A DNA stretch of 64,000 nt from Escherichia coli (lineage in GTDB: Bacteria; Pseudomonadota; Gammaproteobacteria; Enterobacterales; Enterobacteriaceae): NCBI RefSeq assembly GCF_024700885.2, contig NZ_CP117016.1, one strand, 5' to 3'. This document shows positions 9,576 to 42,700 of this stretch, one piece after another. The position numbers and the translations under genes were made by a program. The notes under the pieces were generated by a model. The model was given only the letters and a program-made list of their open reading frames with translations, made no database searches and was not told the DNA's origin. The first letter of the stretch is position 1, and every line of letters starts with the position of its first letter.

Positions 9576-9609
9576 AAACAACTAGTGGAAATACTTGTAC
9601 TTTATAATT

Positions 9610-10554: not shown

Positions 10555-10618
10555 TATTTAGTGCGAATGCCTCTACCAAAATTATCATTACTGTTTTATT
10601 CAGAGAATACATCAAACC

Positions 10619-11233
10619 TTAATTTAAATTCTGATGTTCTGAGTGTACAGGATATGCATCCAAAGAGCGGATAGTAGTTTCATGGATATAATCCAGCAAA
10701 GCGTATCGTTTTCGGTACTCAGAGCGTTTTTTACTGGCTATATCGCTTAGCGGCTTTCGAATCACCTGGGTTGGTAATCTGTACCAGTCACCACAGGTTT
10801 TTCCTGCTACAGACTCCCAGAAATCACTATAGACCGCAACAAAGGTTTTGCGTTTCTGATACCAGTATCTCAATTGCCGGAAAACATGACTGTGCTCACT
10901 GACTGCCAGACACTCAGAGATATTGCAAGCTTTCATCAACGCACAAAATGCTTCAAAAATAATCCGTTTTGGGAAAATCCCATAACAGGCCCGGGTTGCG
11001 CACCGAATAACATCAGGTCCGGTATTTTTAGGGGCTCCCTGTAATCCGCCAATAAAAGCAATGTGTCCATTTTGAGTCAGAATGACTGAAAATGTTAACC
11101 GGGCAATAACTGTTTTATTGTAAAACAATGACAACATCAACTCTCCTTCCCGGTCAAAACCACTGGGAGAACACTGGATATCAAAATTCTCTCCATCTTT
11201 CCCGATGAATTGGACTAATGATACCGATTTTTG
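10619..11233 (-). pseudogene. virK: virK-like (DUF535) gene, C-terminal part only, cut by IS1
   Basis: Open frame runs from the IS1 boundary (...FIGKDGENFDIQCSP...) to the stop at 10619; N-terminal half absent. Confidence 0.55.
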
Positions 11234-23233: not shown

Positions 23234-24151
23234 ATGGTTCAGAAAATTTTGTCGGATAAGGTTATGAATGAAAGAACAAATGCGTATTACTCTTATTATC
23301 TTGGAGAGCGTAATATCTCCGTACTGCCCCTTAATGTTTATGATCCCCCGGAACGTTTTATCGCTTACATAAAAAAAAACAGAGAAAATCTGAACATCAC
23401 ACTTTCAGATTTTGAACTTGAACAAATCATTTCTGGTATGCGTCTGAAGGCACTGGCCTCCCTGGTGCCCCTGGAAAAAATATCCTGGATCGCGGGCAGT
23501 GAACGTGCATGCTTATTTTCCTGGTATCTGTTGATGCAGTTTATCCAGAATAACAGGACAAAAATAAGCGCAGACTTGCTTCAAAAGAATAAACTGTATC
23601 TTAAAGAAGAGTATTTAGAAGGGAATGCCTTCCCGTCGGACTCATCGACACAGTTCAGACAAATACTCAGAGTTCTCGATATTCTTTCTGATAAGAATTT
23701 GCGGGATGAGTGGATAATCCAGACCAAAGACAGATGGATGCGGGCATTTAAATCAAAGAGTCCTTTCAGTTACCTCCTCCCGGAGAACGAACATGAATGC
23801 ATATGGACATGGAATTATTTGAAGGGAAAAAATATTGCACTGGAAAAACTGGCCAGTTTTCCTGGTTCTGCTGATATTTACCACGCAATTCACCTTTCAT
23901 TTGACATATGGGTTACCTGTCCACTCACCTCACCTGACGATATAAAAAATTTCAGAAACAGTTTCAATAAGGCCAAGGCGCAGCGCAAGTACAAAAAAAT
24001 GCAGGAAGATAAAGTCAATGTACAGTTTTTTCTTGACGCAGAAACCAGGGCGCAGCTCAAAGAATTATCGAGGGTCAGAAGACTCAGTACCGGCGAAATG
24101 CTGCATGACCTGATTGTTGAAGAGTATAAAAGGTACCGACATTCCAGATAA
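23234..24151 (+). CDS. Hypothetical protein (305 aa)
   Basis: ORF with GGAGAAAGAGG RBS directly upstream of the GTPase gene; no family recognised. Confidence 0.4.
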   Translation: MVQKILSDKVMNERTNAYYSYYLGERNISVLPLNVYDPPERFIAYIKKNRENLNITLSDFELEQIISGMRLKALASLVPLEKISWIAGSERACLFSWYLLMQFIQNNRTKISADLLQKNKLYLKEEYLEGNAFPSDSSTQFRQILRVLDILSDKNLRDEWIIQTKDRWMRAFKSKSPFSYLLPENEHECIWTWNYLKGKNIALEKLASFPGSADIYHAIHLSFDIWVTCPLTSPDDIKNFRNSFNKAKAQRKYKKMQEDKVNVQFFLDAETRAQLKELSRVRRLSTGEMLHDLIVEEYKRYRHSR

Positions 24152-24235
24152 TTTCAGACATATATTATCTCCGTGAGTCCCCCACCACCTTTCCGGTGTG
24201 CGGGGGTTTTGTCTTTTTTCACCGGGAATACATGT

Positions 24236-25108
24236 ATGAATCCGTCTGATGCCATTGAGGCAATTGAAAAACCGCTCTCCTCCCTGCCTTACTCACTTTC
24301 CCGTCACATCCTGGAACATCTGCGCAAACTCACCAGTCACGAACCCGTGATTGGCATTATGGGTAAAAGCGGGGCCGGTAAATCCTCACTCTGTAATGCA
24401 CTGTTTCAGGGGGAGGTCACCCCGGTCAGTGATGTTCACGCCGGCACCCGGGAAGTGCGGCGCTTCCGTCTGAGTGGCCACGGTCACAGCATGATTATCA
24501 CTGACCTGCCCGGGGTGGGCGAGAGCCGGGACAGGGATGCAGAGTATGAAGCCCTGTACCGTGACATTCTGCCTGAACTTGACCTGGTACTGTGGCTGAT
24601 TAAAGCCGATGACCGTGCCCTGTCTGTGGATGAGTATTTCTGGCGACACATCCTGCACCGGGGACATCAGCAGGTGCTGTTTGTGGTGACGCAGGCCGAC
24701 AAAACGGAGCCCTGCCATGAATGGGATATGGCCGGCATTCAGCCTTCTCCCGCACAGGCACAGAACATTCGTGAGAAAACAGATGCGGTATTCCGGCTGT
24801 TCCGGCCCGTACATCCGGTTGTGGCCGTATCGGCCTGCACCGGCTGGGAACTGGATACGCTGGTCAGTGCGCTCATGACAGCGCTTCCCGACCATGCCGC
24901 CAGTCCCCTGATGACCCGCCTGCAGGACGAGCTGCGCACGGAATCTGTCCGGTCTCAGGCCCGTGAACAGTTTACCGGTGCGGTGGACCGGATATTTGAC
25001 ACGGCGGAGAGCGTCTGTATTGCCTCTGTTGCACGCACGGTTCTGCGTGCCGTCCGTGACTCGGTGGTCTCTGTTGCCCGCGCTGTATGGAACTGGATTT
25101 TCTTCTGA
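24236..25108 (+). CDS. YeeP/YfjP-family small GTPase (290 aa), apparently intact
   Basis: P-loop GIMGKSGAGKSSLCNALF, G3 DLPGVGES, G4 TQADK; lies upstream of flu as yeeP does in CP4-44. Confidence 0.75.
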   Translation: MNPSDAIEAIEKPLSSLPYSLSRHILEHLRKLTSHEPVIGIMGKSGAGKSSLCNALFQGEVTPVSDVHAGTREVRRFRLSGHGHSMIITDLPGVGESRDRDAEYEALYRDILPELDLVLWLIKADDRALSVDEYFWRHILHRGHQQVLFVVTQADKTEPCHEWDMAGIQPSPAQAQNIREKTDAVFRLFRPVHPVVAVSACTGWELDTLVSALMTALPDHAASPLMTRLQDELRTESVRSQAREQFTGAVDRIFDTAESVCIASVARTVLRAVRDSVVSVARAVWNWIFF

Positions 25109-25227
25109 ACACTCTGCCAGGGGAAATGCCTGATTACATTGCGTTAACCAACTGAAAACATGACACAAACACCTCATGCCCCTCCTGTTTCTCTTGCGTG
25201 ACTGCTCTGCTGTTAATAGAATAAAAC

Positions 25228-25263
25228 GATCGATAAAACAGGTATCGATCGTTACTATCGATC
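25228..25263 (+). promoter_or_regulatory. Three clustered GATC (Dam) sites in the flu leader: probable OxyR/Dam phase-variation switch
   Basis: GATC at 25228, 25247 and 25260, about 220 bp upstream of the flu ATG. Confidence 0.6.
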
Positions 25264-25480
25264 GTTTATAGTGGTTAATGGTCTGCGAAAAGGCAGCTGA
25301 ATCTCTTCATCATGCAGAACGGAATTGCACACAACGGACTGATACTTCTCTGGCGGATGAGAGAGGGGAAGCATTTATGTCCGGGAAAAACCACTTTATC
25401 TGACCATGCTGTTTTGTACCTGCCGGTATCCACATTTGTGGGTACCGGCTTTTTTATTCACCCTCTGTAAGGAAAAGCTG

Positions 25481-28327
25481 ATGAAACGACATCTGAACAC
25501 CAGCTACAGGCTGGTATGGAATCACATTACGGGCACCCTGGTGGTGGCTTCCGAACTGGCGCGCTCACGGGGAAAACGCACCGGTGTGGCGGTTGCGCTG
25601 TCTCTTGCTGCTGTCACGTCAGTCCCGGTACTGGCTGCTGACACGGTCGTACAGGCGGGAGAAACCGTGAGCGGCGGAACACTGACAAATCATGACAACC
25701 AGATTGTCTTCGGTACGGCCAACGGAATGACCATCAGTACCGGTCTGGAGTATGGGCCGGATAACGAGGCCAATACCGGCGGACAATGGATACAAAATGG
25801 CGGTATCGCCAACAACACTACTGTCACCGGTGGTGGTCTTCAGAGAGTGAATGCCGGAGGAAGCGTTTCAGACACGGTTATCAGTGCCGGAGGCGGACAG
25901 AGCCTTCAGGGGCAGGCAGTGAACACCACTCTGAACGGCGGTGAGCAGTGGGTACATGAAGGCGGGATTGCAACGGGTACCGTCATTAATGAGAAGGGCT
26001 GGCAGGCCGTCAAATCCGGCGCAATGGCAACCGACACGGTTGTGAATACCGGCGCGGAAGGGGGACCGGATGCAGAAAATGGTGATACCGGGCAGTTTGT
26101 TCGCGGAAATGCCGTACGTACCACTATCAATGAAAATGGTCGTCAGATTGTGGCTGCTGAAGGAACAGCAAATACCACTGTGGTTTATGCCGGCGGCGAC
26201 CAGACGGTACACGGGCATGCGCTGGATACCACACTGAATGGCGGTTACCAGTATGTGCACAACGGAGGCACAGCCTCTGACACGGTTGTAAACAGTGACG
26301 GCTGGCAGATTGTCAAGGAAGGTGGTCTGGCGGATTTCACCACCGTTAACCAGAAAGGCAAACTGCAGGTGAACGCCGGTGGTACAGCCACGAATGTCAC
26401 CCTGAAGCAGGGAGGCGCACTGGTCACCAGTACGGCGGCAACCGTCACCGGCAGCAACCGTCTGGGCAATTTCACTGTGGAAAACGGTAATGCTGACGGT
26501 GTTGTTCTGGAGTCCGGTGGTCGCCTGGATGTACTGGAGGGCCATTCAGCCTGGAAAACACTGGTGGATGACGGCGGAACCCTGGCAGTGTCTGCCGGTG
26601 GTAAGGCAACAGATGTCACCATGACATCCGGTAGTGCCCTGATTGCAGACAGTGGTGCCACTGTTGAGGGGACCAATGCCAGCGGTAAGTTCAGTATTGA
26701 TGGCACATCCGGTCAGGCCAGCGGACTGCTGCTGGAAAATGGCGGCAGCTTTACGGTTAATGCCGGAGGACTGGCCAGCAACACCACTGTCGGACATCGT
26801 GGAACACTGACGCTGGCTGCCGGGGGAAGTCTGAGTGGCAGAACACAGCTCAGTAAAGGTGCCAGCATGGTACTGAATGGCGATGTGGTCAGTACCGGCG
26901 ATATTGTTAACGCAGGGGAGATTCGCTTTGATAATCAGACGACACCGGATGCCGCGCTGAGCCGTGCTGTTGCAAAAGGCGACTCCCCGGTAACGTTCCA
27001 TAAACTGACCACCAGTAACCTCACCGGTCAGGGTGGCACCATCAATATGCGTGTTCGCCTTGATGGCAGCAATACCTCTGACCAGCTGGTGATTAATGGT
27101 GGTCAGGCAACCGGCAAAACCTGGCTTGCGTTTACAAATGTCGGAAACAGTAACCTCGGGGTGGCAACCTCCGGACAGGGTATCCGGGTTGTGGATGCAC
27201 AGAATGGCGCCACCACAGAAGAAGGTGCGTTTGCCCTGAGTCGCCCGCTTCAGGCCGGCGCCTTTAACTACACCCTGAACCGTGACAGCGATGAAGACTG
27301 GTACCTGCGCAGTGAAAATGCTTATCGTGCTGAAGTCCCCCTGTATACATCCATGCTGACACAGGCAATGGACTATGACCGGATTCTGGCAGGCTCCCGC
27401 AGCCATCAGACCGGTGTAAACGGTGAAAATAACAGCGTCCGTCTCAGCATTCAGGGCGGTCATCTCGGTCACGATAACAACGGCGGTATTGCCCGTGGAG
27501 CCACGCCGGAAAGCAGCGGCAGCTATGGCTTCGTCCGTCTGGAGGGTGACCTGCTCAGAACAGAGGTTGCCGGTATGTCTCTGACGACAGGGGTGCATGG
27601 TGCCGCAGGCCATTCTTCCGTTGATGTTAAGGATGATGACGGTTCCCGCGCCGGCACGGTCCGGGATGATGCCGGCAGCCTGGGCGGATACCTGAATCTG
27701 ACACACACGTCCTCCGGCCTGTGGGCTGACATTGTGGCACAGGGAACCCGCCACAGCATGAAAGCGTCATCGGACAATAACGACTTCCGCGCCCGCGGCT
27801 GGGGCTGGCTGGGCTCACTGGAAACCGGTCTGCCCTTCAGTATCACTGACAACCTGATGCTGGAGCCACAACTGCAGTATACCTGGCAGGGACTTTCCCT
27901 GGATGACGGCCAGGATAACGCCGGTTATGTGAAGTTCGGGCATGGCAGTGCACAACATGTGCGTGCCGGTTTCCGTCTGGGCAGCCACAACGATATGAGC
28001 TTTGGTGAAGGCACCTCATCCCGTGACACCCTGCGCGACAGTGCAAAACACCGTGTGCGTGAACTGCCGGTGAACTGGTGGGTACAGCCTTCTGTTATCC
28101 GCACCTTCAGTTCCCGGGGTGACATGAGCATGGGGACAGCCGCCGCCGGCAGTAACATGACGTTCTCACCGTCCCGGAATGGCACGTCACTGGACCTGCA
28201 GGCCGGACTGGAAGCCCGTGTCCGGGAAAATATCACCCTGGGCGTTCAGGCCGGTTATGCCCACAGTGTCAGCGGCAGCAGCGCTGAAGGTTATAACGGT
28301 CAGGCCACGCTGAATGTGACTTTCTGA
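25481..28327 (+). CDS. flu: Antigen 43 autotransporter adhesin (948 aa)
   Basis: [35 protein letters not shown]... signal/passenger repeats and C-terminal beta-barrel ending ...GQATLNVTF. Confidence 0.9.
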
Positions 28328-28397
28328 TAATCAGGTCACTCTCCTTCAGGCCCCGGTCATCATGACCGGGGCTTTTTACTTTCAGGGAGCAACAGAT

Positions 28398-28556
28398 ATG
28401 CCGGGTTGTACATCACGTTTATTGCCCGAAGGCCCTTTCTCACGCGAACAGGCTGTTGCCGTCAAAACAGCTTACCGCAATGTATTTACTGAAGATGACC
28501 AGGGAACATATTCCCGGCTGGTTATCCGTAATGCTGAAGGTCAGTTGCGCTGGTGA
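28398..28556 (+). CDS. Small hypothetical protein (52 aa)
   Basis: ORF with AGGGAG RBS between flu and the DUF932 gene. Confidence 0.35.
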
Positions 28557-28710
28557 TGCCGGAACACAGCTTAATACTCAGCTCGCCAGTTAAGGGCTTC
28601 TCAGACAATAAACGTCATTCATTTCATCTGTCAGGCCGCGTCTTCTCCGGGAGACGCAGCTTTTTCATTTATTACACCAGTAAATCGTAACCACCGATAA
28701 GGAGCAAATT

Positions 28711-29529
28711 ATGCGACTAGCCAGTCGTTTTGGTTATGCGAACCAGATACGCCGTGACCGTCCGCTGACACACGAAGAACTGATGCACTATGTTCCCAGT
28801 ATTTTCGGTGAAGACCGGCATACTTCCCGCAGTAAACGATATGCGTACATTCCCACCATCACCGTACTGGAAAGCCTGCAGCAGGAAGGTTTTCAGCCAT
28901 TCTTCGCCTGCCAGACCCGCGTGCGCGACCCGGGCCGCCGGGGATACACAAAACACATGCTGCGTCTGCGGCGGGCCGGAGAGATAAACGGAGAACATGT
29001 CCCTGAAATTATTCTGCTCAACTCTCATGACGGTACCTCCAGCTACCAGATGCTGCCGGGTTACTTCAGATTCGTCTGCCAGAATGGCTGCGTCTGCGGT
29101 CAGTCTCTGGGGGAAGTGCGTGTTCCACACCGGGGAAATGTGGTGGAGAAAGTTATCGAAGGGGCTTACGAAGTGGTGGGGGTTTTTGACCGGATTGAGG
29201 AAAAGCGTGATGCCATGCAGTCGCTGGTCCTGCCGCCACCGGCACGCCAGGCGCTGGCACAGGCGGCACTGACTTACCGTTATGGTGACGAACATCAGCC
29301 AGTCACCACCGCTGACATTCTGACGCCACGACGCCGGGAGGATTACGGTAAGGACCTGTGGAGTACTTATCAGACCATCCAGGAGAATATGCTGAAAGGC
29401 GGGATTTCCGGCCGCAGTGCAAAAGGAAAACGTATCCACACCCGTGCCATTCACAACATCGACACCGATATTAAGCTCAACCGCGCATTGTGGGTAATGG
29501 CAGAAACGCTGCTGGAGAGCCTGCGCTGA
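28711..29529 (+). CDS. DUF932-family protein (YfjQ/YafZ-like)
   Basis: Position and sequence typical of CP4-type prophage DUF932 proteins. Confidence 0.6.
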   Translation: MRLASRFGYANQIRRDRPLTHEELMHYVPSIFGEDRHTSRSKRYAYIPTITVLESLQQEGFQPFFACQTRVRDPGRRGYTKHMLRLRRAGEINGEHVPEIILLNSHDGTSSYQMLPGYFRFVCQNGCVCGQSLGEVRVPHRGNVVEKVIEGAYEVVGVFDRIEEKRDAMQSLVLPPPARQALAQAALTYRYGDEHQPVTTADILTPRRREDYGKDLWSTYQTIQENMLKGGISGRSAKGKRIHTRAIHNIDTDIKLNRALWVMAETLLESLR

Positions 29530-29870
29530 TGCAGCATGTCCCTGAAGGCGTGATTCAGGCACCAGAATCACCCGACGCCCCGGAGGCGCTGCCGGGGTGT
29601 CGTTCCATTTCTGATGATGACCTGTGCGCCTGGTGTACCCGTCTGCTTTACCGTCCCGGAGAAATCAGTCTGTGCAGACTGAGTATACAGGCAATGGCAT
29701 CTGGCCATCCGTCTGTGACCGGAACGGTTACGCGTACGGCTGTCCGGAATTTCAGCCGAATATCATTCATCCCTGATATTACCGGGTCATCACGGTCAGT
29801 GATGAACGTGATGTTGCCAGGTCCCGACCTTTACTCCCTCTCATTTATTCACATTACAAGGATTTCATAC

Positions 29871-30344
29871 ATGAAAACATTGTCTCAGAACACCACCTCT
29901 TCGGCCTGTGCACCGGAGACTGACCTGCAACAACTGGTTGCCACCCTCGTCCCTGATGAACAGCGCATCAGCTTCTGGCCGCAGCACTTTGGCCTCATTC
30001 CACAGTGGGTGACCCTGGAGCCCCGTGTCTTCGGCTGGATGGACCGTCTGTGCGAAGACTACTGCGGTGGTATCTGGAATCTGTACACCCTGAACAACGG
30101 CGGGGCATTTATGGCACCCGAACCGGATGACGATGATGACGAAACATGGGTACTGTTCAATGCCATGAACGGTAACCGCGCTGAAATGAGTCCGGAAGCT
30201 GCCGGCATTGCTGCCTGTCTGATGACGTACAGTCATCATGCCTGTCGTACGGAGTGTTATGCCATGACGGTCCATTATTACCGGCTGCGGGATTACGCCC
30301 TGCAGCATCCGGAATGCAGCGCCATTATGCGCATCATCGACTGA
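29871..30344 (+). CDS. Antirestriction protein, KlcA/ArdB-like (YfjX family)
   Basis: MKTLSQNTTSSACAPETDLQQLVATLVPDEQRISFWPQHFG...; upstream frame open to 29490 but homology begins here. Confidence 0.65.
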   Translation: MKTLSQNTTSSACAPETDLQQLVATLVPDEQRISFWPQHFGLIPQWVTLEPRVFGWMDRLCEDYCGGIWNLYTLNNGGAFMAPEPDDDDDETWVLFNAMNGNRAEMSPEAAGIAACLMTYSHHACRTECYAMTVHYYRLRDYALQHPECSAIMRIID

Positions 30345-30359
30345 ATGGAGAGAAGTACA

Positions 30360-30836
30360 ATGCAACAGCTTTCCTTTCTGCCCGGAGAGATGACGCCCGG
30401 CGAGCGCAGCCTCATTCAACGGGCCCTGAAAACCCTGGACCGCCATCTTCATGAACCCGGCGTGGCCTTCACCTCCACCCGTGCGGCACGAGAATGGCTG
30501 ATTCTGAACATGGCGGGACTGGAGCGTGAAGAGTTCCGGGTGCTGTATCTGAACAACCAGAATCAGCTGATTGCCGGTGAAACCCTCTTCACCGGCACCA
30601 TCAACCGCACGGAAGTCCATCCCCGTGAAGTGATTAAACGCGCCCTGTATCACAATGCCGCTGCTGTGGTGCTGGCACACAATCACCCGTCCGGTGAAGT
30701 CACACCCAGCAAGGCAGACCGCCTTATCACGGAACGTCTGGTACAGGCACTGGGCCTGGTGGATATCCGGGTGCCGGACCATCTGATAGTCGGTGGCAGC
30801 CAGGTTTTCTCCTTTGCCGAATATGGTCTGCTTTAA
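30360..30836 (+). CDS. RadC-like JAB-domain protein (YeeS/YkfG family)
   Basis: JAMM motif HNHPSGEVTPSKADRLIT; GGAGAG RBS. Confidence 0.75.
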   Translation: MQQLSFLPGEMTPGERSLIQRALKTLDRHLHEPGVAFTSTRAAREWLILNMAGLEREEFRVLYLNNQNQLIAGETLFTGTINRTEVHPREVIKRALYHNAAAVVLAHNHPSGEVTPSKADRLITERLVQALGLVDIRVPDHLIVGGSQVFSFAEYGLL

Positions 30837-30898
30837 CCCGTCACAACCACATCACACCTGTTTTCACTTTTATCTTCTGTCTTCAGAGGTATCCCACT

Positions 30899-31120
30899 AT
30901 GAAAATCATCACCCGTGGCGAAGCCATGCGTATTCACCGTCAGCATCCGGCATCCCGTCTTTTTCCGTTCTGTACCGGCAAATACCGCTGGCACGGCAGT
31001 GCTGAAGCGTATACCGGTCGTGAAGTGCAGGATATTCCCGGTGTGCTGGCCGTGTTTGCAGAACGCCGTAAGGACAGTTTTGGTCCGTATGTCCGGCTGA
31101 TGAGCGTCACCCTGAACTGA
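30899..31120 (+). CDS. YeeT-like DUF987 protein (73 aa)
   Basis: Position and size as yeeT upstream of cbeA. Confidence 0.6.
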   Translation: MKIITRGEAMRIHRQHPASRLFPFCTGKYRWHGSAEAYTGREVQDIPGVLAVFAERRKDSFGPYVRLMSVTLN

Positions 31121-31282
31121 TGTTCCGTCACCCGGAAAACGAGTACGACTGGCTGAGCTCAGACGCCGCTGTGGATGAGGCCCTGCTCATCAACGAATAC
31201 ACCTTCACCGAAGCCGGTCTGTGCACCGGCTGACCCGTCATCGTTAAACTATCATTCACCGATTTTCTGTGAGGATTTTATC

Positions 31283-31651
31283 GTGTCAGACACACTTTCC
31301 GGGACAACGCATCCCGATGACAATGACGACCATCCCTGGTGGGGACTACCCTGCACAGTGACGCCCTGTTTCGGCGCCCGTCTGGTGCAGGAGGGTAACC
31401 GGTTGCATTACCTTGCCGACCGTGCCGGTATCAGAGGCCGGTTCAGAGATGCGGATGCGTACCCTCTGGACCAGGCCTTTCCGCTGCTGATGAAACAACT
31501 GAAATTAATGCTCACCAGTGGTGAACTGAATCCCCGCCATCAGCATACCGTGACACTGTATGCGAAGGGGCTGACCTGTGAAGCCGACACCCTCGGCTCC
31601 TGTGGTTACGTTTATCTGGCTGTTTATCCGACACCTGAAACGAAAAAGTAA
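31283..31651 (+). CDS. cbeA: CbeA/YeeU-family antitoxin (122 aa), GTG start
   Basis: [50 protein letters not shown]...; GAGGA RBS before GTG. Confidence 0.75.
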
Positions 31652-31740
31652 ACCACCAGAATAACCTTCTGCTCCGGCCTGGTGTTTTCACCACGCCACT
31701 GTCCCATTTTTTATCTCTGCATATCAGGAAAATCTTCAGT

Positions 31741-32115
31741 ATGAAAACATTACCCGACACGCATGTACGGGAGGTATCGTGCTGCCCGTCTCCCGTCACC
31801 ATCTGGCAGACACTGCTCACCCGGTTACTGGACCAGCATTACAGCCTTACGCTGAATGACACACCGTTCGTGGATGAACGCGTGATTGAGCAGCATATTG
31901 AGGCAGGCATTTCACTGTGTGATGCAGTGAACTTTCTCGTGGAAAAATACGCACTGGTACGAACTGACCAGCCGGGATTCAGCGCAGGAGCCTCGTCGCA
32001 GTTAATCAACAGCATTGATATTCTCCGGGCTCGCCGGGCAACAGGCCTGATGACCCGCCACAACTACAGAACGGTGAACAATATCACCCTGGGTAAGTAT
32101 CCGGAGGCGAAATGA
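31741..32115 (+). CDS. cbtA: CbtA/YeeV-family toxin (124 aa)
   Basis: [43 protein letters not shown]...; follows the antitoxin. Confidence 0.75.
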
Positions 32116-32603
32116 TGAAACTGGCCCTGACACTGGAAGCCGACAGTGTTAACGTACAGGCACTGAATATGGGGCGAATTGTCGTTGACATTGATGGTGT
32201 TAATCTCGCTGAACTGATTAACATGGTCTGCGATAACGGCTACTCCCTTCGTGTTGTTGATGAATCTGACCGGACCTCAGCAGACTGCACGCCACCATTT
32301 GTTGCCCTTACCGGCATACGCTGCAGTACCGCACATATCACGGAAACGGACAACGCCTGGCTGTACTCGCTGTCACACCAGACCAGTGACTTCGGTGAAT
32401 CAGAATGGATTCATTTTACCGGTACCGGTTATCTGTTACGTACCGATGCGTGGTCATACCCGGTTCTGCGGCTTAAGCGCCTGGGGCTGTCAAAAACGTT
32501 CCGTCGTCTGGTCGTCACACTCATCCGGCGTTATGGTGTCAGTCTCATTCATCTGGATGCCAGTGCCGGATATCTGCCGGGTTTACCCACTTTCGACTGG
32601 TAA
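32112..32603 (+). CDS. YeeW-like hypothetical protein (163 aa)
   Basis: Start overlaps cbtA stop (ATGA); position as yeeW in CP4-type elements. Confidence 0.5.
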
Positions 32604-32619
32604 TCCGGAAATTCACAAC

Positions 32620-32796
32620 ATGAAATCATTAACCACGGAAACAGCGCTGGATATTCTGATTACGTGGCTGCAGGACAATATCGACTGCGAATCGGGAATT
32701 ATCTTCGACAACGATGAGGATAAAACAGGTTCGGCAGCACTGTTGCGCTGTATCGAACAGGCCAGGGAGGGTATCCGTACCCTGCGCCAACAGTAA
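32620..32796 (+). CDS. Small hypothetical protein (58 aa)
   Basis: MKSLTTETALDILITWLQDNIDCESGIIFDNDEDKTGSAALLRCIEQAREGIRTLRQQ. Confidence 0.4.
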   Translation: MKSLTTETALDILITWLQDNIDCESGIIFDNDEDKTGSAALLRCIEQAREGIRTLRQQ

Positions 32797-33706
32797 CTTT
32801 TGCACCAGAACCAGTGAAGATCACTCACCCGATTTCACTTCCCTGACGTCAGCCTGAACACGGCTGGCGTTTTCATTTATAAACAGAAAGGAAAAATGAT
32901 GATGTCAGATACCACACTCTCCCGCCCGGAGGTGGTCAGCGGGCATACGGACGTTATCTATTCCACCTCAGTCTGCCACATTCTGGCTGTACGAAAGAGT
33001 ACACTGTTGCCAATCGACACAATTATCCGGCATCAAGTAAGCGATATCAGTTAACCGATATAGATGGGGAAGATGCTTTTATCCGGATTGGTTCTATCGC
33101 GATGGTGCGAGTACCACTTGATGCAATGGAGCCTGTCGAGGAAGATGACGAGTAACAGAGCTCGGTATCTCAATCAGGACCTGATTGTCCTGGTTCGATG
33201 CCGAAAACCAGTGATTTTTCGTGTTGGTATCTGTGTTGGTATAGGATGGTGTTGTTTATTATTAACAATTTTAAATCATGAGGTTAAATCGCATGTTTGA
33301 GTCCGGCCTTCGCACCACATCGTATGCAAATCGAGTCGCTCAAGGGCGGCTTTTTTTGTGCCTGTGTTTTCACTACTTTGTTTGTATGTAACGCTGATAA
33401 TCTAAGAACTTCGGAAGCCCCATTCCCATCAATGATGTTCATTCATCATCCTGAAAATTAAGTAGATATAAAACTTCATTGCCTTGGTCTAATGGCTCAG
33501 GAAATAGATTGCATTTAGCGAGTGGCATTCTTAATGTGCCATTGTTTAGCCATGAAACGATGCGTAAAATTGCTGATTTTATGTGTCAAAGGCCCGCAAC
33601 CGGAGATGTCCTTACTTCAAGGATCAACCACTATTGGCGTATCCTTTTACTATCTTGATTCAATTCAGCAGGTTATCGTCAAAAGTACAGCGAAGAGAGA
33701 GAAAAG

Positions 33707-36598
33707 ATGATTGGTACAACACCTTATCATGCGAAATATTTTGCGCATGAACTTTCCATTCTCCATTCAAACAATGGGGTGGACCGTCTGTCTCAATCGC
33801 TGTTTGATGCAAGCGTAGATCTAAATCCTCATCAAATTGAGGCGGCTCTTTTTGCTATTGAAAATCCGCTAAGCAAAGGTGTTGTGCTTGCCGATGAAGT
33901 TGGTTTAGGTAAAACCATTGAAGCGGGGTTAGTGCTTTGCCAGTTGTGGGCTGAAAGAAAACGTAAACTGTTGATCATTTGTCCTGCTTCACTGCGTCGC
34001 CAATGGGCGAGCGAGTTACAGGAAAAGTTCAATCTACCTTCTCAGGTGTTGGACGCGAAAACGTATAGCCAGCTTCAAAAAGAAGGGATCCATAATCCCT
34101 TAAATAATAAATCGATCACTATCATGTCATACCACTATGCTGCTCGGTTAGAAGAAAAATTGGTGGCTGAAATGTGGGATCTGGTTGTTATCGACGAAGC
34201 CCATAAACTGCGTAATGCTCATCGAGAAAGTAACAAAATGGGGCAAGCGTTAAAGCGTGCGCTTGATGGGCGGAAAAAATTACTACTGACCGCAACGCCT
34301 TTACAGAATTCGTTAATGGAACTGTATGGCATGTCGACGCTTATAGATGAACATACCTTCGGCGAAGTTAAAGCGTTCAGAAAGCAATATATGCAGGCAG
34401 ATAGCGATATTGCGGAGTTGAAGGGGCGATTGTCGCGTTTTATCAAACGAACTTTACGCAAGAATGTGCTGGAGTACATCAAGTATACAGAACGTAAAGC
34501 GATCACTATTCCTTTCTATCCGAGCGAACAGGAGCAGGATCTTTATGAACGCGTACAAAAATTGCTTGAACGTGAGGATAGCTATGCCTTACCAAAACGA
34601 CACCGGCATCTGACGGGGCTTATTCTCAGAAAGCTACTTTCCTCAAGTACGAAAGCTGTATTGAATAACTTGCAGATCCTTAAGAGTCGTTTAGAAAGGT
34701 TAAAGCTGGAAGGTATCGTTGAAGATGATATGAACATCATCCAACAGATCATAATGGATGACGATCTTGAAGATGACATCGTGGAAGATGCCGAATCAGT
34801 GGCTTTAGATACCGAGTGCAAAGTTGTCGATTCAGACGCGCTTCAGGCAGAAATCAATGAGCTGGAATCACTCATTGTCAAAGCAGAACAGATTGGCACT
34901 GATACCAAATCAAAAGAGTTGCTTTCTGGCCTGGAGCAAGGTTTTGCACAGCTTGCCGAAATGGGGGCTGCAAAAAAAGTCATCATCTTCACGGAGTCAA
35001 TGCGAACTCAACAGTATCTTGCACATTTTCTGGAAAACAATGGCTACCAGGGGAAAGTAGTAACCTTTAGTGGCACAAACAATACACCGCAGGCAAACAA
35101 GATCTACCAGCAATGGCGCGAGGAATATCAGGGATCTTCTCGTATTACCGGGTCGGCGCAAATTGATAAACGCTCGGCTTTGATCGACCACTTCAAAGAT
35201 CATGCTGAAATCATGATAGCTACAGAAGCTGCAGCTGAAGGGGTGAACCTGCAATTTTGTTCGCTACTGATCAATTACGATTTACCCTGGAACCCACAAC
35301 GCATTGAACAGCGTATTGGACGTTGTCACCGATACGGGCAAAAATTTGATGTGGTTGTTATTAACTTCCTCAATCAGCGAAACCAGGCCGATCAACGCGT
35401 TCTTGAACTCTTAACTGAAAAGTTCAGCCTGTTTGATGGCGTGTTTGGCGCATCGGATAGTGTGCTTGGCAGCATAGAAAATGGTGTGGATTTTGAAAAA
35501 AGGATCCAGTCAATTTATGAGTCATGCCGTACCCCCGAGGAGATAGAGCTGGCTTTTGAAAGGTTGCAGAAAGAGCTGGAAGATGAAATCAATCTCAAGA
35601 TGCAGAAGACGCAAGAACAGTTGCTTGAGCATTTTGATGAAGATATTCACGATATCCTTAAAATAAGGCTTGATGAAGCTCGGGAGCGTCTGGATAAAGT
35701 CGGTCGTTGGTTTTGGGCCGTGACCTGTCAGCAGCTCAAACAATATGCTGATTTTGATCATGAGCATCATCGTTTCACTTTACGTGAATCAGTAAATGAA
35801 CTGCCTGTCGGGCAGTACCAGCTGTTGCGCAAAGATGGTAGGCAAAATAGTGCGTTACAAATGCAGGATCACCACAGTTTTGCATATCGGATCAATCATC
35901 CGCTGGGTGAGTACGTCATTGAGGGGGCTAAGGTCCAGGAGACGAAAACAGCTGAAGTCATCTTCGATTACAGTAACCACACAACGAAAGTCTCGGTGGC
36001 TGAGCAGCTGAAAGGGCAATCAGGGTGGTTAACACTAAATTTGCTTACTGTTGATGCGTTTAACAGGCAGCAATTTTTAGTCTTTACCGCAAAAACTGAC
36101 AACGGACGTGTGGTAGATGGTGAAGCTTGTAAACGTCTGTTCAACTTGTCTGCAATAACCAACGAAAAGCTGGATAATTCGGCAAGTTCAGATGCATTAC
36201 CTGATGACTTGATCTTACTCAAGAACAGGCAAATTGACGCCAGACTTGCGGAAGTTCTGGAGCAGAACAATGTCCTTTTTGAAGCTGAAAGAGATAAGCT
36301 GGAAAAATGGGCTGAAGATATGATCTTTGCGGCGGAAGAAGCATTACGCGATACCAAAATGCAAATCAAGTCGTTAAAGCGAGAAGCCAGACTGGCGCAA
36401 TCGATGGAAGAACAAAAGCAAAACCAGGAAAAGCTGAAGCTACTGGAACGGCAGCAGAAACGCCAACGTATGGAAATTTTTGACATTGAAGATGAGATCG
36501 CTGACAAGCGGGATGAACTCATCAGTGCCCTTGAAGAGCGGATGAAGCAAAAAACGGATATCACCGAGCTTTTTTCCATCCGCTGGAAAGTTATTTAA
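33707..36598 (+). CDS. SNF2-family DEAH-box ATPase/helicase (963 aa) with C-terminal coiled-coil tail
   Basis: Walker A DEVGLGKT (33893-33916), motif II VVIDEAHKLRN (DEAH 34193-34204), motif III LLLTATPLQNS, helicase-C NLQFCSLLINYDLPWNPQRIEQRIGRCHRYGQ; AGAGAGA RBS. Confidence 0.85.
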   Translation: MIGTTPYHAKYFAHELSILHSNNGVDRLSQSLFDASVDLNPHQIEAALFAIENPLSKGVVLADEVGLGKTIEAGLVLCQLWAERKRKLLIICPASLRRQWASELQEKFNLPSQVLDAKTYSQLQKEGIHNPLNNKSITIMSYHYAARLEEKLVAEMWDLVVIDEAHKLRNAHRESNKMGQALKRALDGRKKLLLTATPLQNSLMELYGMSTLIDEHTFGEVKAFRKQYMQADSDIAELKGRLSRFIKRTLRKNVLEYIKYTERKAITIPFYPSEQEQDLYERVQKLLEREDSYALPKRHRHLTGLILRKLLSSSTKAVLNNLQILKSRLERLKLEGIVEDDMNIIQQIIMDDDLEDDIVEDAESVALDTECKVVDSDALQAEINELESLIVKAEQIGTDTKSKELLSGLEQGFAQLAEMGAAKKVIIFTESMRTQQYLAHFLENNGYQGKVVTFSGTNNTPQANKIYQQWREEYQGSSRITGSAQIDKRSALIDHFKDHAEIMIATEAAAEGVNLQFCSLLINYDLPWNPQRIEQRIGRCHRYGQKFDVVVINFLNQRNQADQRVLELLTEKFSLFDGVFGASDSVLGSIENGVDFEKRIQSIYESCRTPEEIELAFERLQKELEDEINLKMQKTQEQLLEHFDEDIHDILKIRLDEARERLDKVGRWFWAVTCQQLKQYADFDHEHHRFTLRESVNELPVGQYQLLRKDGRQNSALQMQDHHSFAYRINHPLGEYVIEGAKVQETKTAEVIFDYSNHTTKVSVAEQLKGQSGWLTLNLLTVDAFNRQQFLVFTAKTDNGRVVDGEACKRLFNLSAITNEKLDNSASSDALPDDLILLKNRQIDARLAEVLEQNNVLFEAERDKLEKWAEDMIFAAEEALRDTKMQIKSLKREARLAQSMEEQKQNQEKLKLLERQQKRQRMEIFDIEDEIADKRDELISALEERMKQKTDITELFSIRWKVI

Positions 36599-36603
36599 TT
36601 GAT

Positions 36604-39600
36604 TTGAAAGAGAAAATAATGAGTAAGTACAACGAATTAGTTAAGAAGCTAAAAGAAATTTTTCAGATTGATCGACCAGAACTGGATTTCGGTATTTATC
36701 GTATTTTAAATGCACGTGCTGATGAAATTAACGACTATCTGGATAATAAGCTGAAGGCCAAAATCCAGTCTGCGCTGGCGGATGCAGGAAATGCCAATAA
36801 ATCAGAATTAGAACATCAGTTGCAACTGACAATAAAAGCGGCAACTGATGCGGGTGTGGACCCTGCTGATAGCCCGAAAGTACAGGAGCTTAAAAAGCAA
36901 CTGGCGGCTATGGCATCCGGAGCAAATGAGCATGAAAATGCAGTATTTTCCCATCTGCTGACTTTCTTTTCGCGTTATTATGACAACGGCGATTTTATCA
37001 GCAAACGCCGTTATAAAGGTAATACCTACGCCATCCCTTATTCTGGCGAAGAAGTGATGTTGCACTGGGCAAATAAGGACCAGTACTACATTAAAAGCGG
37101 TGAAAACTTTGCTAATTATTCATTTAAATTAGATGATGGTCGTAAAGTTAGCTTTAAATTGCTCGCAGCGGACACAGCAAAAGATAACCGTAAAGATAAT
37201 GAATTAGATCGCTGCTTTGTACTTATTGAGCCGCATGTTCGTACCAAAATTGATGAAGAAGGCGATGAGTACGAACAAGAATATAAGCCAGTAGAAGTGG
37301 TGAAAACTTCATCTGTGGTTGACGGTAAACTCGTTGAAACAGAAGAGTTAGTTATTCACTTCGAATATAAGGCCATGAAAAAGGGCACTAAGCAGGATGC
37401 TTTAGTGCAGTCCGCTATTTCAACAATTCTGGCTGATAAAACAGTTCAACAGCATTGGGTTGATCTTGCTAAACGTGCGCCAACAGAAAAAAATCCGTCA
37501 CGTACAGAGTTGGAGCGTCATCTTACAACTTATACCCAGCGTAATACAGCAGACTACTTTATTCATAAAGATCTCGGTGGTTTTTTAACTAACGAACTGG
37601 ATTTTTATATTAAAAATGAAGTAATGAATCTCGATAATGTGCAAAATGCAGAAGTGTTTGCCAATATTGAGAAACAATTGCGCATGATTCAATGTTTGCG
37701 TACTGTTGCGCTGGAACTCATTGCATTTTTGGCACAAATTGAGAATTTCCAGAAGAAACTTTGGACTAAGAAGAAGTTTGTTGTTTCAAGTAATTACTAT
37801 ATTACTATGGACAAAATAAGTTCAGAGTTTTACAGTGAAATAATTAATAATGAAAAAATAGTCCAAGAATGGATTGAATTAGGCATCTTAGATGAGAAGC
37901 CATCTACCTCTGATGTGGAGTTGCTCAAGTTTGCAACAGTTAATTTATCTCATTTAAACGGAGATCTAAGGAAAAAAATATTAAATAGTATCAATGATAT
38001 TGACGATAATGTTGATGGCGTTTTTATTAATGGTGATAATTATCAAGCGTTAAATCTTTTGAAGAAAAAATATAATTCCGTAATTGATTGTGTCCATATA
38101 GATCCACCATATAACACAGATACTAGTGGTTTTTTATATAAAAATAGCTTTAAGCATTCAAGTTGGCTGAGTATGATGGATAGCCGTTTGCTTTTTGTTA
38201 AAAATTTACTCAGTGAAAATGGTGTATTTTTTTGTCATATTGATGAAAATGAATATGAGCGACTTTATTTAATTAATAAACAGTTAGGTCTTATCGATGC
38301 AGGGACAATTATTTGGGATAAACGCAATCCCATGAATGGTGGTAGTGGCATTGCGATTCAACATGAATATACTACTTGTTTTACAAAGAACATGATTTCT
38401 ATTAATAAGAAAAATGAGAATGTATTAGAAATACTCGAATATGCAAAATTAATTAAGAATAAATATCCTGTAATTAACAGTGAAGCAAAGAAAAAATTTT
38501 ATGATTGGGTAACAAAGAATAAAAAACTTACTGGAGGTGAACAAGCTTACAAATATATCGATGAGAAAGGTCGAGTGTACCAGAGTGTCAGCCTCCGTGC
38601 CCCAGAGCCAAGGACTGACAAGAAATTCTATATACCATTAATTCATCCAGTTACCGGGAAACCATGCGCTATGCCACCAAATGGTTTTTCTCGTACCCCA
38701 GAAACATTAAAAGATATGATGGATAAGGGGGATATACTATTTGGTGTTGATGAAACAACGCAACCTAGACAGAAAGCATATTTATATGCTGACGCTAAAA
38801 AGCAAATAACATCAATAATTCAGGATGCTAAAAAAGGAAAAACTCAAACAACTCATCTTGGAATTGATTTTCCTTATTGTCACTCAACTTCTTTATATAA
38901 TTATTTAATTGGGAGTGCATCTCATAATAAAAATGAGATAATATTAGATTTTTTTGCTGGTTCAGGAACAAGTGGCCACTCAGTCATAGAGTTGAATCGT
39001 AAGGATGCGGGTTCAAGGAAATATATACTTGTTGAACAGGGGGAGTATGCACAAAATGTAACTTTAAGCAGGTTGAGAAAAGTTATATTCAGTAGCAATT
39101 GGAAAGATGGTAAAGCTATGGATTCAACGACAGGCTCATCTCATATACTTAAAGTTATGAAAATAGAAAGTTACGAAGATGTATTAAATAGCCTTCGATT
39201 TGAACAACAAAAAGAAATAAAAGATCTTTTTGATACAGTGAATGAATCAGTAGCAAATGAGTATTTAATAAAATATATGCTTGAAACAGAAAGCAAAGGT
39301 TCACTACTCAGTACTGATAATTTCAAAAAACCATTTAACTACGAAATGGATATTGCGACGGATTCCGCCGGTGCCACTGAGCGTAAAAACATCGATTTAG
39401 TTGAAACTTTCAACTATCTCATTGGTTTACATGTGAAATCCATCGAATCCAATATCGAACGTGGCTATGTGCGTGTTGAAGGAATGCTACCAACAGGCGA
39501 GCGTACCCTTATTCTGTGGCGCGATTGCGACAAGATCGGTTATGAAGAATTGAATAAATATGCCAACCGATTCGATTTATATGCAAAAGAAAACACGTTC

Positions 39601-39741
39601 GACGTTATCTATATCAATGGCGATCATAACTTACCTACCGCCTTTACTGTTGATGAAGAAGACGGCGAGATTGTTCGTAGCCTGAAAATCCGCCAGATCG
39701 AACCTGAATTCTTGAACCTGATGTTTGCGGAGGAGGTTTAA
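36604..39741 (+). CDS. Large beta-class DNA methyltransferase (N6-adenine/N4-cytosine type; 1045 aa) with about 490-aa N-terminal extension
   Basis: Motif IV HIDPPYNTD (38101-38112) precedes motif I ILDFFAGSGTSG (38951-38977), the order seen in Type III Mod; starts 6 bp after the SNF2 stop. Confidence 0.8.
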   Translation: MKEKIMSKYNELVKKLKEIFQIDRPELDFGIYRILNARADEINDYLDNKLKAKIQSALADAGNANKSELEHQLQLTIKAATDAGVDPADSPKVQELKKQLAAMASGANEHENAVFSHLLTFFSRYYDNGDFISKRRYKGNTYAIPYSGEEVMLHWANKDQYYIKSGENFANYSFKLDDGRKVSFKLLAADTAKDNRKDNELDRCFVLIEPHVRTKIDEEGDEYEQEYKPVEVVKTSSVVDGKLVETEELVIHFEYKAMKKGTKQDALVQSAISTILADKTVQQHWVDLAKRAPTEKNPSRTELERHLTTYTQRNTADYFIHKDLGGFLTNELDFYIKNEVMNLDNVQNAEVFANIEKQLRMIQCLRTVALELIAFLAQIENFQKKLWTKKKFVVSSNYYITMDKISSEFYSEIINNEKIVQEWIELGILDEKPSTSDVELLKFATVNLSHLNGDLRKKILNSINDIDDNVDGVFINGDNYQALNLLKKKYNSVIDCVHIDPPYNTDTSGFLYKNSFKHSSWLSMMDSRLLFVKNLLSENGVFFCHIDENEYERLYLINKQLGLIDAGTIIWDKRNPMNGGSGIAIQHEYTTCFTKNMISINKKNENVLEILEYAKLIKNKYPVINSEAKKKFYDWVTKNKKLTGGEQAYKYIDEKGRVYQSVSLRAPEPRTDKKFYIPLIHPVTGKPCAMPPNGFSRTPETLKDMMDKGDILFGVDETTQPRQKAYLYADAKKQITSIIQDAKKGKTQTTHLGIDFPYCHSTSLYNYLIGSASHNKNEIILDFFAGSGTSGHSVIELNRKDAGSRKYILVEQGEYAQNVTLSRLRKVIFSSNWKDGKAMDSTTGSSHILKVMKIESYEDVLNSLRFEQQKEIKDLFDTVNESVANEYLIKYMLETESKGSLLSTDNFKKPFNYEMDIATDSAGATERKNIDLVETFNYLIGLHVKSIESNIERGYVRVEGMLPTGERTLILWRDCDKIGYEELNKYANRFDLYAKENTFDVIYINGDHNLPTAFTVDEEDGEIVRSLKIRQIEPEFLNLMFAEEV

Positions 39742-39743
39742 GA

Positions 39744-42700
39744 ATGGCTAAAAAACCGACCACCGGTAAAGCTGTTAAAAAAGAGACAAACAGCAAACTG
39801 AGCTTTCATAAGCAACTGGTTTTGAACCGCTTTATGTTCCATTTTTTTAAAGATGGCACATTGCAAGGTTTAAAAAATCGGTTAGGTGAAGATCGCTTTG
39901 AAGGCATCCATGAAGATGGCCAAAGCTTGTTCTTCCATGAGCTGAGTAACTATTTATTCGAGGTCGATCTTATCGATCTCGATGAACTGCGTCGTTACGA
40001 TCTCAATATCGTACAGCACTGGCAGCAGATAACTGAGCACCGTAATCGCAAAGAAGACACCGTGCTGAATATGAAATATTTTCAGTACTTGTCGCTTCTG
40101 TTTACCGAGATCTACCTGGACTGGTACTTCAATCGTAAACAGCAATTACTCGATGGGCTAAATAACGAGCTGGCAGCATACAATGCTGAAAATGATAAAA
40201 CAGCAAAAGACCGGGCTAATCAGTTCAAATCATACATTCTAGATGACTTGAATAAACTTGCATACTGGAACGCTACCGGTTCGGGTAAAACACTGCTATT
40301 GCATGTCAATATTTTGCAATATTTACATTATTTCCAGAACGGTAATACCCACCATTACCCGGATAAAATCATCCTGCTTACGCCGGATGAACGCCTGTCG
40401 AAGCAACATTTAGATGAGCTGGAAAACTCAGGATTTACCCAATACCAGTTATTCGATAAGAGTAAATCTGCGCCCTTCAAAGGCACGATTGAAGTTATTG
40501 ATATCAATAAACTTGCCGATGAAATGGGTGACAAAACTGTTGCCGTTGAGGCATTTGAAGGCAACAATCTGGTTCTGATTGATGAAGGGCATAAAGGCAC
40601 CGGAAGTGCTGCTGGTGCCTGGATGCGCCGTCGTGACAAATTAACACGTGACGGATTTGCGTTTGAATATTCAGCAACTTTTGGCCAGGCAGTAGCCGGT
40701 GGCAATAATGTTGAGGCAGTTGAAACAGAAATTCAGAAGAAAAAAGCAAAGCTGCTTTTTGAAACAACGGCCTTAGGTAAACTGAACGAAGAAGAGTTAG
40801 CGCAAATAGCATTAACCAGCGAAGAAAAACGAGATGCGCGTATTCAGGCGACGCGAGAGGTCTATGGAAAATCGATTCTGTTCGATTACTCCTATAAATT
40901 CTTCTATGAGGATGGTTATGGTAAAGAATCACTGATTCTTAACCTTAATCCTGAAGAGGATAAAAAAGATGAGCGTCGGTATGAGTATTTTACCGCGTGT
41001 TTGCTCAGCTTTTATCAGCAACAATATTTATTCAATAAGAATAAAGAAAAATTAAGTGAATTTAATATCGAAAAACCGCTGTGGGTTTTTGTCGGTAATA
41101 CGGTAAGTGGTGAAGATTCAGACATTCACGCAGTATTGCGTTTTTTAGCATGGTTTTTAAACCACGAAACGCAGGCAAAAGCGTGGATTAACGATCTCAT
41201 TAAAAATAAAGCGCGAATCCTCGATACCAAAGAGCGTAACATTTTTGAAAATCGCTTTACTGCACTAATGAACGCTCCGGAAGATATCTACGCAGATATT
41301 CTTTCTCGCTTGTTTAACACCACTCACTCTGGTCAGCGACTGCGAGTTCTGAATTTAATAGGCAGTAAAGGTGAACTGGCATTACAGGTTGGTGAGGCCG
41401 AACCGTTTGGCCTTATCAATATTGGTGATGCACCGTCTCTTTACAAAATGTGTGAAGAGGATACGACATTTGATTATCAGAGAGATGATTTTGCAAAGTC
41501 ACTCTTTCATACGTTAAATGACAAAGACTCGCGACTACATATTTTGATCGGCTCGCGAAAATTTACTGAAGGCTGGAGCAGTTGGCGCGTCTCAACGATG
41601 GGATTGCTCAATATGGGCCGTGGAGAAGGTTCACAGATCATTCAGTTATTTGGTCGTGGCGTACGCCTTAAAGGTCGCAATTATTCTTTGAAACGCAGTA
41701 CACCCGGTGAGCGTCCGAAAGGGTTGCATCTGGAAAAATTAGAGACACTGAATGTATTCGGTGTACGTGCCGATTACATGGCAACCTTTAAACAATACCT
41801 GGAAGATGAAGGGATTACGCCAAGTGACGAGATCCTTGAGCTGAATTTTGAAACTCGGCCAAATATGCCAGCAACCAGGCTTAAAACACTTAAGCTTAAA
41901 GATGGTTATAAAGATAATCAAAGACTCGGCTTTAAACGTGTCTATTTTCCCGAATTGTATGAAGTTCCTGCTGATTTTCAGGGGAAAATTAAGCAGCCGC
42001 ATATTAAGCTGGACTTATACCCGAAACTTGAGTCGATTGATACCAGCAGAAAAGGGGACAATACTCCGGTTAACGTGCGCAATGAAGCGAAGTTAGATTA
42101 TAAAATCATTAGTGCATTTGATTTTGATCGGCTTTATCTCGCCATTCAGAATTATAAACTACAACGCGGCTGGTCAAATTTACGTGTGGATAAACAACGT
42201 TTGATCGACTTTTGTACCGGTAAGACAAAGATCGGAAATAGTTGGTATACCCTTTTGATTCCAGCTTCAGAGCTTGAGATTAAGCAATATGCAGATATTG
42301 CTAAGCAGGAAGATATTATGCTTCGTCTGCTGACTGATTATACTGATCGCTTTTACAACACCTTGAAAAATGCTTATGAAGGTCAGTTTTATGAAGTCAC
42401 GCAGGTGAAAGAAGATGATCCTGGTATGATCAAAATGTACCATTTCGAGATCGAAGAAACTGATGATGGGTTGGCTTATGCCAGTCGGCTGGAACAATTA
42501 CAACAATTGGTCATCGACGGCGAAATCGGTAAAGCAAAATCCTGGAGTGCATCCGGGATGGTTGCTATTACCTTTGATAAACATCTCTATTACCCGCTTC
42601 TTTCGATTGAAAAAAATGCCAATATACCGCTAAAAATGCGACCGGCAGCACTTGGTGCGCCAAGCGAGATTACTTTTGTTCAGGATCTTCAGTCTTTTGT

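Follow-up and report, generated by a model that had tools for sequence, protein, structure and literature searches.

An intact UTI89-type agn43 allele, most likely phase-variable, in a CP4-type island of Escherichia coli

The published module scheme for Ag43 separates two kinds of allele. SF-I alleles (classes C1 and C3) have a passenger of about 500 aa and a BL1 module of 143 aa, and SF-II alleles (C2, C4, C5 and C6) have a passenger of about 430 aa and a BL2 module of 90 aa. The SF-II classes together account for about 56% of catalogued Ag43 sequences. The Flu (Ag43) protein of K-12 (b2000; class C1, SF-I) has 1039 aa, Cah, also called Ag43-EDL933 (class C2, PDB 7KOH), has 949 aa, and Ag43-UTI89 (UTI89_C1139 of UPEC UTI89; class C4, Ageorges 2019 / Vo 2022) has 948 aa. 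Vo 2022 found that the α-domains of the UTI89 and EDL933 types have four lower-arm rungs instead of seven, and that Ag43-UTI89 pairs via a single interface with 13 hydrogen bonds. In the same study glycine substitution of seven interface residues abolished aggregation, and residues D133 and R161 were suggested to prevent a double interface. Ag43a and Cah both settled faster than Ag43-UTI89, and for Cah fast aggregation and a double interface were reported (Vo 2022). The structure 7KO9 is assigned to Ag43-UTI89 in the structure paper's own table; its PDB molecule name, "AidA-I family adhesin", gives no strain.

Control of agn43 is described best for K-12. According to the K-12 literature, OxyR represses agn43 as long as the GATC sites of the switch lack methylation; methylation by Dam keeps OxyR off, and competition between the two proteins begins anew after each replication. 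Three adjacent unmethylated GATCs have also been reported upstream of Ag43 in CFT073. Expression of flu is further described in the literature, with reference to Wallecha 2014, as controlled by IsrC antitermination.

Here we examined the agn43 locus of a 64,000-nucleotide stretch of E. coli DNA (contig NZ_CP117016.1), the whole of which we call the window. We conclude that the locus very probably holds an intact, single-gene agn43 (flu) in a CP4-type island, that its allele is an SF-II allele of the UTI89 type, and that it is most likely phase-variable by the known mechanism. The locus is part of a composite island flanked by lpxM/virK and nanC/fim. The order of the CP4-type backbone is GTPase (YeeP family), Ag43, DUF905 (frameshifted), DUF932, antirestriction and YeeS/RadC-JAB, and the backbone continues with YeeT, the YeeU antitoxin, the CbtA toxin, DUF5983 and DUF957. 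Over 25 kb the window shows 100% identity to E. coli MLI114, which was isolated from human stool in Mali. Two complete genomes carry the 3.3-kb Ag43 locus at 100% identity; in one of them, DETEC-P80, it occupies the CP4-44 position and adjoins tmaR and yeeA. At a coverage of at least 80%, the Ag43 locus was matched in 3289 of 5426 complete genomes.

The agn43 coding sequence occupies 25481-28327 on the + strand, from an ATG at 25481 to a stop codon at 28325-28327. Its translation gives 948 aa beginning with MKRHLNT, as a preliminary description of this DNA had read it, and the reading frame is free of frameshifts and internal stops. A program-made list of open reading frames starts the gene further upstream, at an ATG at 25406. 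We took 25481 as the start because of the ribosome-binding site AAGGA 8 nt upstream (25469-25473), the ESPR and the RefSeq annotation. The identical protein, WP_000820595.1, is annotated as intact in two complete genomes.

The protein carries the same four Pfam families as K-12 Flu: an ESPR (aa 6-48), AIDA repeats (6 stretches), AC_1 (488-599) and the Autotransporter β-barrel (673-924), each scoring above its own Pfam cut-off. All parts of a type Va architecture are thus present, namely extended signal peptide, β-helical passenger, type 1 autochaperone and C-terminal barrel. The NCBIfam model NF033177, the equivalog for Ag43/Cah, matched at 1991 bits against a cut-off of 1200, and the match spans model positions 1-948 of 948. 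Because the model itself has 948 positions, the "short" length of the window protein is the reference length for the model. The best PDB match was 7KO9, and the passenger also matched the solved structures 7KOH, 4KH3 and 7KOB.

The preliminary description had given roughly 1040 aa for K-12 Ag43, close to the actual length of Flu, and had proposed that the window gene is a passenger-domain variant. To place the difference, we aligned six alleles with MAFFT: the window, UTI89, Cah, M24FEP, K-12 and an Ag43a-like long allele. The proteins of these alleles share 69-97% identity. K-12 Flu contains three extra in-frame blocks of 72, 8 and 16 aa, which follow window aa 471, 487 and 502 and correspond to aa 469-540, 557-564 and 580-595 in K-12 numbering. 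This gap pattern is common to the window, UTI89, Cah and M24FEP, and all published SF-II short alleles lack the three K-12 blocks. In the window the region lies at 26893-26988 (+ strand), in the BL2/AC1 module of short alleles, and the 91-residue deficit relative to K-12 Flu maps to the lower β-helix and the autochaperone region. The sequence that flanks the blocks is only 39-54% identical to K-12. Since these flanks are diverged, we read the length difference as a module swap, not as a recent deletion, and the proposed passenger variant is an allelic length difference with no truncating lesion.

With a passenger of about 430 aa and a short BL2 in place of BL1, the window gene is an SF-II, UTI89-type short-passenger allele by its sequence, and belongs to class C4 in the 2019 scheme. 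In the six-class scheme of 2023 it is either C4 or C6; a search of the supplements of Ageorges 2023 for UTI89, H10407 and WP accession strings returned none. A short passenger is not unusual, given the share of SF-II among catalogued sequences and a leader type that occurs, at a coverage of at least 80%, in 3445 of 5426 complete E. coli genomes.

The closest relative is Ag43-UTI89. The two proteins share 923 of 948 residues (97.4%) and differ by 25 substitutions, which include a small cluster in a passenger loop at aa 206-218 (FVRGN..E in the window and TVYGD..K in UTI89). Marker peptides of the 7KO9 chain were found in the UTI89 gene. The likeness extends to the surroundings: the UTI89 agn43 leader is nearly identical to that of the window, with GATCs at -253, -234 and -221, and the island neighbours are the same, with a GTPase gene upstream and DUF932, antirestriction and JAB genes downstream. 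The chromosomal site differs: the neighbours of the window island are nanC and a truncated fim operon. Using the interface residues listed for Ag43-UTI89 in Vo 2022, we found nine of nine kept in the window protein (G13, G30, T32, N60, D79, T80, T98, N100 and N137 in mature numbering), and D133 and R161 are conserved as well. The question of autoaggregation is in effect already answered, because the data of Vo 2022 cover the near-identical Ag43-UTI89 and the interface is conserved.

Cah has the same short SF-II architecture as the window protein and shares its gap pattern, leader family and GATC arrangement. The two are 89% identical overall, but just 61-73% identical over aa ~100-300, and Cah has the stalk SL2 where the window has SL1. 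K-12 Flu is 74% identical to the window protein, with identity rising to about 86-91% over the first 300 aa and to 88-100% across the β-domain; beyond its extra blocks it differs by a diverged EJ-BL-AC module. The N-terminal 300 aa of the window protein resemble K-12 (86-91%) more than Cah (61-92%), which fits an SL1-EJ2-BL2 mosaic. The K-12 gene also shares with the window its -10 element, leader terminator and ribosome-binding site, together with the three GATCs and their spacing. In its centre the K-12 leader bears no relation to that of the window and is about 30 nt shorter, and the proximal OxyR half-site of K-12 is nearer to the consensus.

Upstream of the gene, the three GATCs named in the preliminary description are present at 25228 (GATC-I), 25247 (GATC-II) and 25260 (GATC-III), within a switch region that we place at 25226-25262 (+ strand) in the register of the K-12 OxyR site. 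They lie 19 and 13 bp apart within a span of 36 bp, and these distances are those of the K-12 flu switch and invariant in the six alleles. In the six-leader alignment the three sites are in register without gaps. A two-sequence MAFFT alignment of the window and K-12 had placed a 13-bp gap in the switch; we rejected it on position counts and on the gap-free six-sequence alignment. A putative sigma-70 promoter lies at 25194-25222 (+ strand), with TTGCGT as -35 (25194-25199), a 17-bp spacer and TAGAAT as -10 (25217-25222). Its position is set by homology to the K-12 flu promoter region; a consensus sigma-70 scanner did not call an agn43 promoter, because the -35 matches at just three of six positions. 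Among the six alleles the -10 and the downstream AATAAAACGATC vary little or not at all, with AAGAAT as -10 in one of them, and the same holds for ATCGATCGTT...ATCGATCG in the switch.

The preliminary description had also called this the arrangement bound by OxyR, which was borne out in part. The K-12 GATC positions and the distal OxyR half-site are conserved, and the proximal half-site is a poor match to the consensus. The distal half-site ATCGTTACTATCGAT (25248-25262) matches at eight of ten consensus positions, and among the six alleles it varies at positions 7-9 only, the N positions of the ATAGnTnnnAnCTAT consensus; such variation, confined to N positions, is the pattern expected from constraint by protein binding. 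The proximal half-site, in the K-12 register, matches at two of ten positions compared with six of ten in K-12, and its right arm is AAACA in the window and TCTAT in K-12. The segment from GATC-I to GATC-II is wholly different between the two leader families. For the full candidate site, consensus matching is a weak test, and it gives 10/20 in the window and 14/20 for the validated K-12 site. Alternative registers in the window reach 13/20, a score (the third best) that occurs twelve times in 64 kb, three of them within this 55-bp region. An OxyR site that overlaps the GATCs is therefore likely in the window leader family, on sequence grounds. In the literature accessible to us we found no published test of OxyR/Dam control on this leader family.

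The agn43 leader RNA (25226-25480, + strand) belongs to the IS102/IsrC family. The Rfam model RF00124 matched 25226-25462 over its full length (1-206) with 74.6 bits (gathering score 46, E=1.2e-11), and the window leader has larger central insertions than the model consensus. The start of the match at 25226 puts the transcript start 2 nt before GATC-I; in K-12, isrC is annotated from GATC-I. Across the six alleles the ends of the leader are conserved relative to K-12 and the centre is replaced between two families, and K-12-type leaders match the window leader at the 3' end only. An attenuator-like hairpin lies at 25422-25455 (+ strand), 26 nt before the start codon, with a 12-bp stem that includes 8 G-C pairs and is followed by TTTTTT. 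It was seen in both the MFE and the centroid folds and is nearly invariant across the six alleles. An intrinsic terminator at 28348-28374 (+ strand), also with a 12-bp stem, 8 G-C pairs and a T-run, starts 21 nt past the agn43 stop codon, and we conclude that agn43 is a self-contained transcription unit.

Three other readings of the locus have to be weighed. The 948-aa ORF could be a deletion derivative or defective copy of a K-12-length gene, as its shortfall of 91 aa relative to K-12 Flu might suggest. We consider this extremely improbable: all four domains are complete, NF033177 matches end to end, there is neither frameshift nor internal stop, the gaps recur, between diverged flanks, in UTI89, Cah and M24FEP, and the crystal structure of an equally long passenger has been solved. 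The alignments rule out a truncated or defective gene. Nor do we give any real credence to the idea that the three GATCs cluster by chance and play no part in regulation. Triplets of GATC within 36 bp are not rare in the window, which contains five where about 0.9 would be expected from random placement. The other four lie inside gntP, uxuB, uxuR and a helicase gene. The 19/13 spacing, unique in the window and identical to the K-12 flu switch, makes the agn43 triplet specific. We rejected a chance cluster on account of this spacing and because the triplet, which matches the characterised K-12 switch and is conserved in six alleles, sits at the transcript start of an Rfam-matched leader, within 9.3 kb that hold no other GATC.

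A more serious concern is whether the window leader family, with its triplet kept and its proximal half-site diverged, is repressed by OxyR weakly or not at all. Expression would then be constitutive, mostly ON, or set by the leader terminator or by another GATC-sensitive factor. The low score of the proximal half-site and of the full site, and the complete difference between the leader families from GATC-I to GATC-II, speak for such a loss. Against it, no variation in GATC-I, in the spacing or in the distal half-site is seen across the two families, alternative registers reach 13/20, the window leader predominates in E. coli, and the retention of the GATCs in a backbone otherwise without them argues for selection on them. 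We judge weak or absent OxyR repression to be unlikely, and retain the reading of an intact SF-II agn43 that is most likely phase-variable by the known mechanism.

Under that reading, and by analogy with what has been published for K-12 and UTI89, the locus would work as follows. The protein would be exported by means of its extended signal peptide and C-terminal β-barrel and would display an L-shaped β-helix, the lower arm of which has fewer rungs than in long alleles. Cells would clump by head-to-tail pairing through a single N-terminal interface, as in Ag43-UTI89, and aggregation would be expected to be slower and looser than with Ag43a or Cah. When the GATCs at the transcript start are unmethylated, OxyR would bind across them and block transcription (OFF); when they are methylated by Dam, OxyR could not bind (ON). 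After replication, Dam and OxyR would compete again for the hemimethylated sites. The 255-nt IsrC-type leader may add a second layer, with the terminator hairpin before the ribosome-binding site stopping a fraction of transcripts.

The surroundings of the switch are unusual in their GATC content. A GATC-free stretch extends from 25264 to 32818 and covers Ag43, DUF905, DUF932, antirestriction, YeeS/RadC, YeeT, YeeU, CbtA, DUF5983 and DUF957, so that the 7.5 kb downstream of the switch contain 0 GATC compared with 26.8 expected. The upstream GTPase gene (24236-25108) is GATC-free too, and the 9.3 kb from 23492 to 32818, for which about 33 GATCs would be expected, contain none besides the three switch sites. 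Other 4-bp palindromes were not purged likewise in the 7.5-kb stretch. The lack of GATC elsewhere in the backbone lends support to selection on the three retained switch sites.

All six Ag43 coding sequences examined contain zero GATC; shuffling of synonymous codons in each gave means of 6.3-8.9 GATC, with P(0) ≤0.0005 for each gene. The codon signature was specific: Asp before a codon starting with C was GAC in 5/5 cases, Ile after a codon ending in G was ATC in 0/9, and an xGA codon was never followed by TCx. Over five islands, conserved backbone genes have 0-1 GATC each, nearly all of them none, whereas inserted cargo has normal GATC density (yeeR; dynamin, RdcB and patatin; IrmA; SNF2, methyltransferase and helicase). 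GATC-free regions of at least 1 kb, enriched in genomic islands, have been published in general terms; no mention of the Ag43 island module, or of a link between it and the switch, was found in the literature on such regions.

The paralogous backbones of CP4-6 and CP4-57, which are without Ag43, are depleted in GATC 2.5- to 4.6-fold but not emptied. GTPase genes adjoining Ag43 have 0-1 GATC, compared with 3-4 in paralogues from islands without Ag43. The Ag43-linked copies form one lineage, 96-98% identical among themselves and about 57% identical to yfjP and ykfA, and since this is a single evolutionary comparison it cannot separate a purge linked to the switch from a lineage effect.

A functional tie between the GATC purge and the switch or the adhesin is possible, though we hold it to be rather improbable. 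Removal of flanking GATCs might insulate the switch sites from processively arriving Dam, shield the switch from spreading of SeqA, or avoid cutting by MutH at unmethylated sites in OFF cells. Alternatively, an Ag43 gene without GATC might be poorly served by methyl-directed mismatch repair and might diversify faster. A plainer alternative is that the purge lets the island escape GATC-specific restriction, or effects of hemimethylation, when it is transferred, and the depletion of the CP4-6 and CP4-57 modules, which are without Ag43, fits this explanation.

We also scanned contigs for the pattern GATCGTTNNNATCGATCG. With 15 defined bases against 298 Gb the scan was unspecific and returned almost only chance matches, and its sole informative match was in Citrobacter werkmanii. 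There a triple GATC with 19/13 spacing and the near-identical core TTATCGATCGTTTTTATCGATCGAT lies at 7176-7211 of locus L017. It precedes the genes for two small unknown proteins, beyond which come a SLATT-like 2TM protein and a SMODS nucleotidyltransferase. No Ag43 homologue was found near this triplet.

Taken together, the allele class, structure, aggregation behaviour, GATC/OxyR switch and leader RNA are all already known, and as a discovery the window gene carries little weight. The same-geometry switch before an unrelated Citrobacter operon may deserve a look, and so may the complete absence of GATC, the switch excepted, from Ag43 genes and the island backbone. The practical value of the result is that the gene should be annotated as an intact agn43 of the UTI89 type (SF-II) that is probably phase-variable, instead of as a truncated flu. 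The window variant is the commoner form of Ag43 in E. coli.

The three switch GATC sites at 25228, 25247 and 25260 are the only GATCs in a 9.3-kb stretch of the window (23492-32818). The absence extends to the Ag43 coding sequences themselves: all six that we examined contained zero GATC, and synonymous shuffling gave P ≤ 0.0005 for each. We also counted GATCs in the conserved backbone genes of the island (GTPase, DUF932, antirestriction, RadC/YeeS, YeeT, YeeU, CbtA, DUF5983 and DUF957) and found 0-1 per gene. Besides the window, these observations cover loci L002, L004, L127, L128 and L129. Cargo genes inserted in the islands had a normal GATC density. The density was also normal in a defence cluster at 33707-44658, which directly follows the Ag43 module and encodes a SNF2-related protein, a 1040-aa site-specific DNA methyltransferase, a DEAD/DEAH helicase and a phosphorothioated-DNA-binding restriction endonuclease. 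Prior publication on GATC absence seems to be limited to a general report that GATC-free regions are enriched in genomic islands (Forde 2015).

Three GATCs falling within 36 bp are not restricted to the switch. Across the whole window we observed five such triplets, compared with about 0.9 expected from random placement, and those other than the switch lie inside the coding sequences of a helicase (42417-42452), gntP (53562-53583, with a period of exactly 9 bp), uxuB (56309-56339) and uxuR (57611-57626). In Citrobacter werkmanii NBRC 105721 (locus L017, 7176-7211, minus strand), a GATC triplet shows exactly the 19/13 spacing of the agn43 switch and nearly the same core sequence. About 45 bp downstream begins an operon without relation to Ag43, encoding in order two small unknown proteins, a SLATT-like 2TM protein and a SMODS nucleotidyltransferase. 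We suggest that this locus may be Dam/OxyR phase-variable, adjoining a CBASS-like defence pair.

The 3.3-kb Ag43 query matched four places in the genome of strain MLI114 (NZ_CP117013.1), so more than one copy of agn43 is probably present, and likely several. Matching genomes had a median of 2 such places and a maximum of 15. Immediately 3' of agn43 is a DUF905 gene (28398-28593) annotated as frameshifted, and the frameshift is annotated in both of two 100% identical genomes. The left part of the island (9609-11232) holds an lpxM gene, which codes for the lipid A myristoyltransferase, together with a virK gene that is truncated, both beside IS elements. A similar pairing, msbB2-virK, is known from Shigella and EAEC.

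At 49182-50787, a 5'-truncated fimD directly adjoins an IS1A copy, and fimB through fimC are missing between nanC and fimD; therefore, the type 1 fimbrial operon of this strain looks inactivated. A passage in PMC10984119, citing Hasman 1999, states that fimbriation reportedly blocks Ag43-mediated aggregation, and thus Ag43 clumping would be unmasked in this strain.
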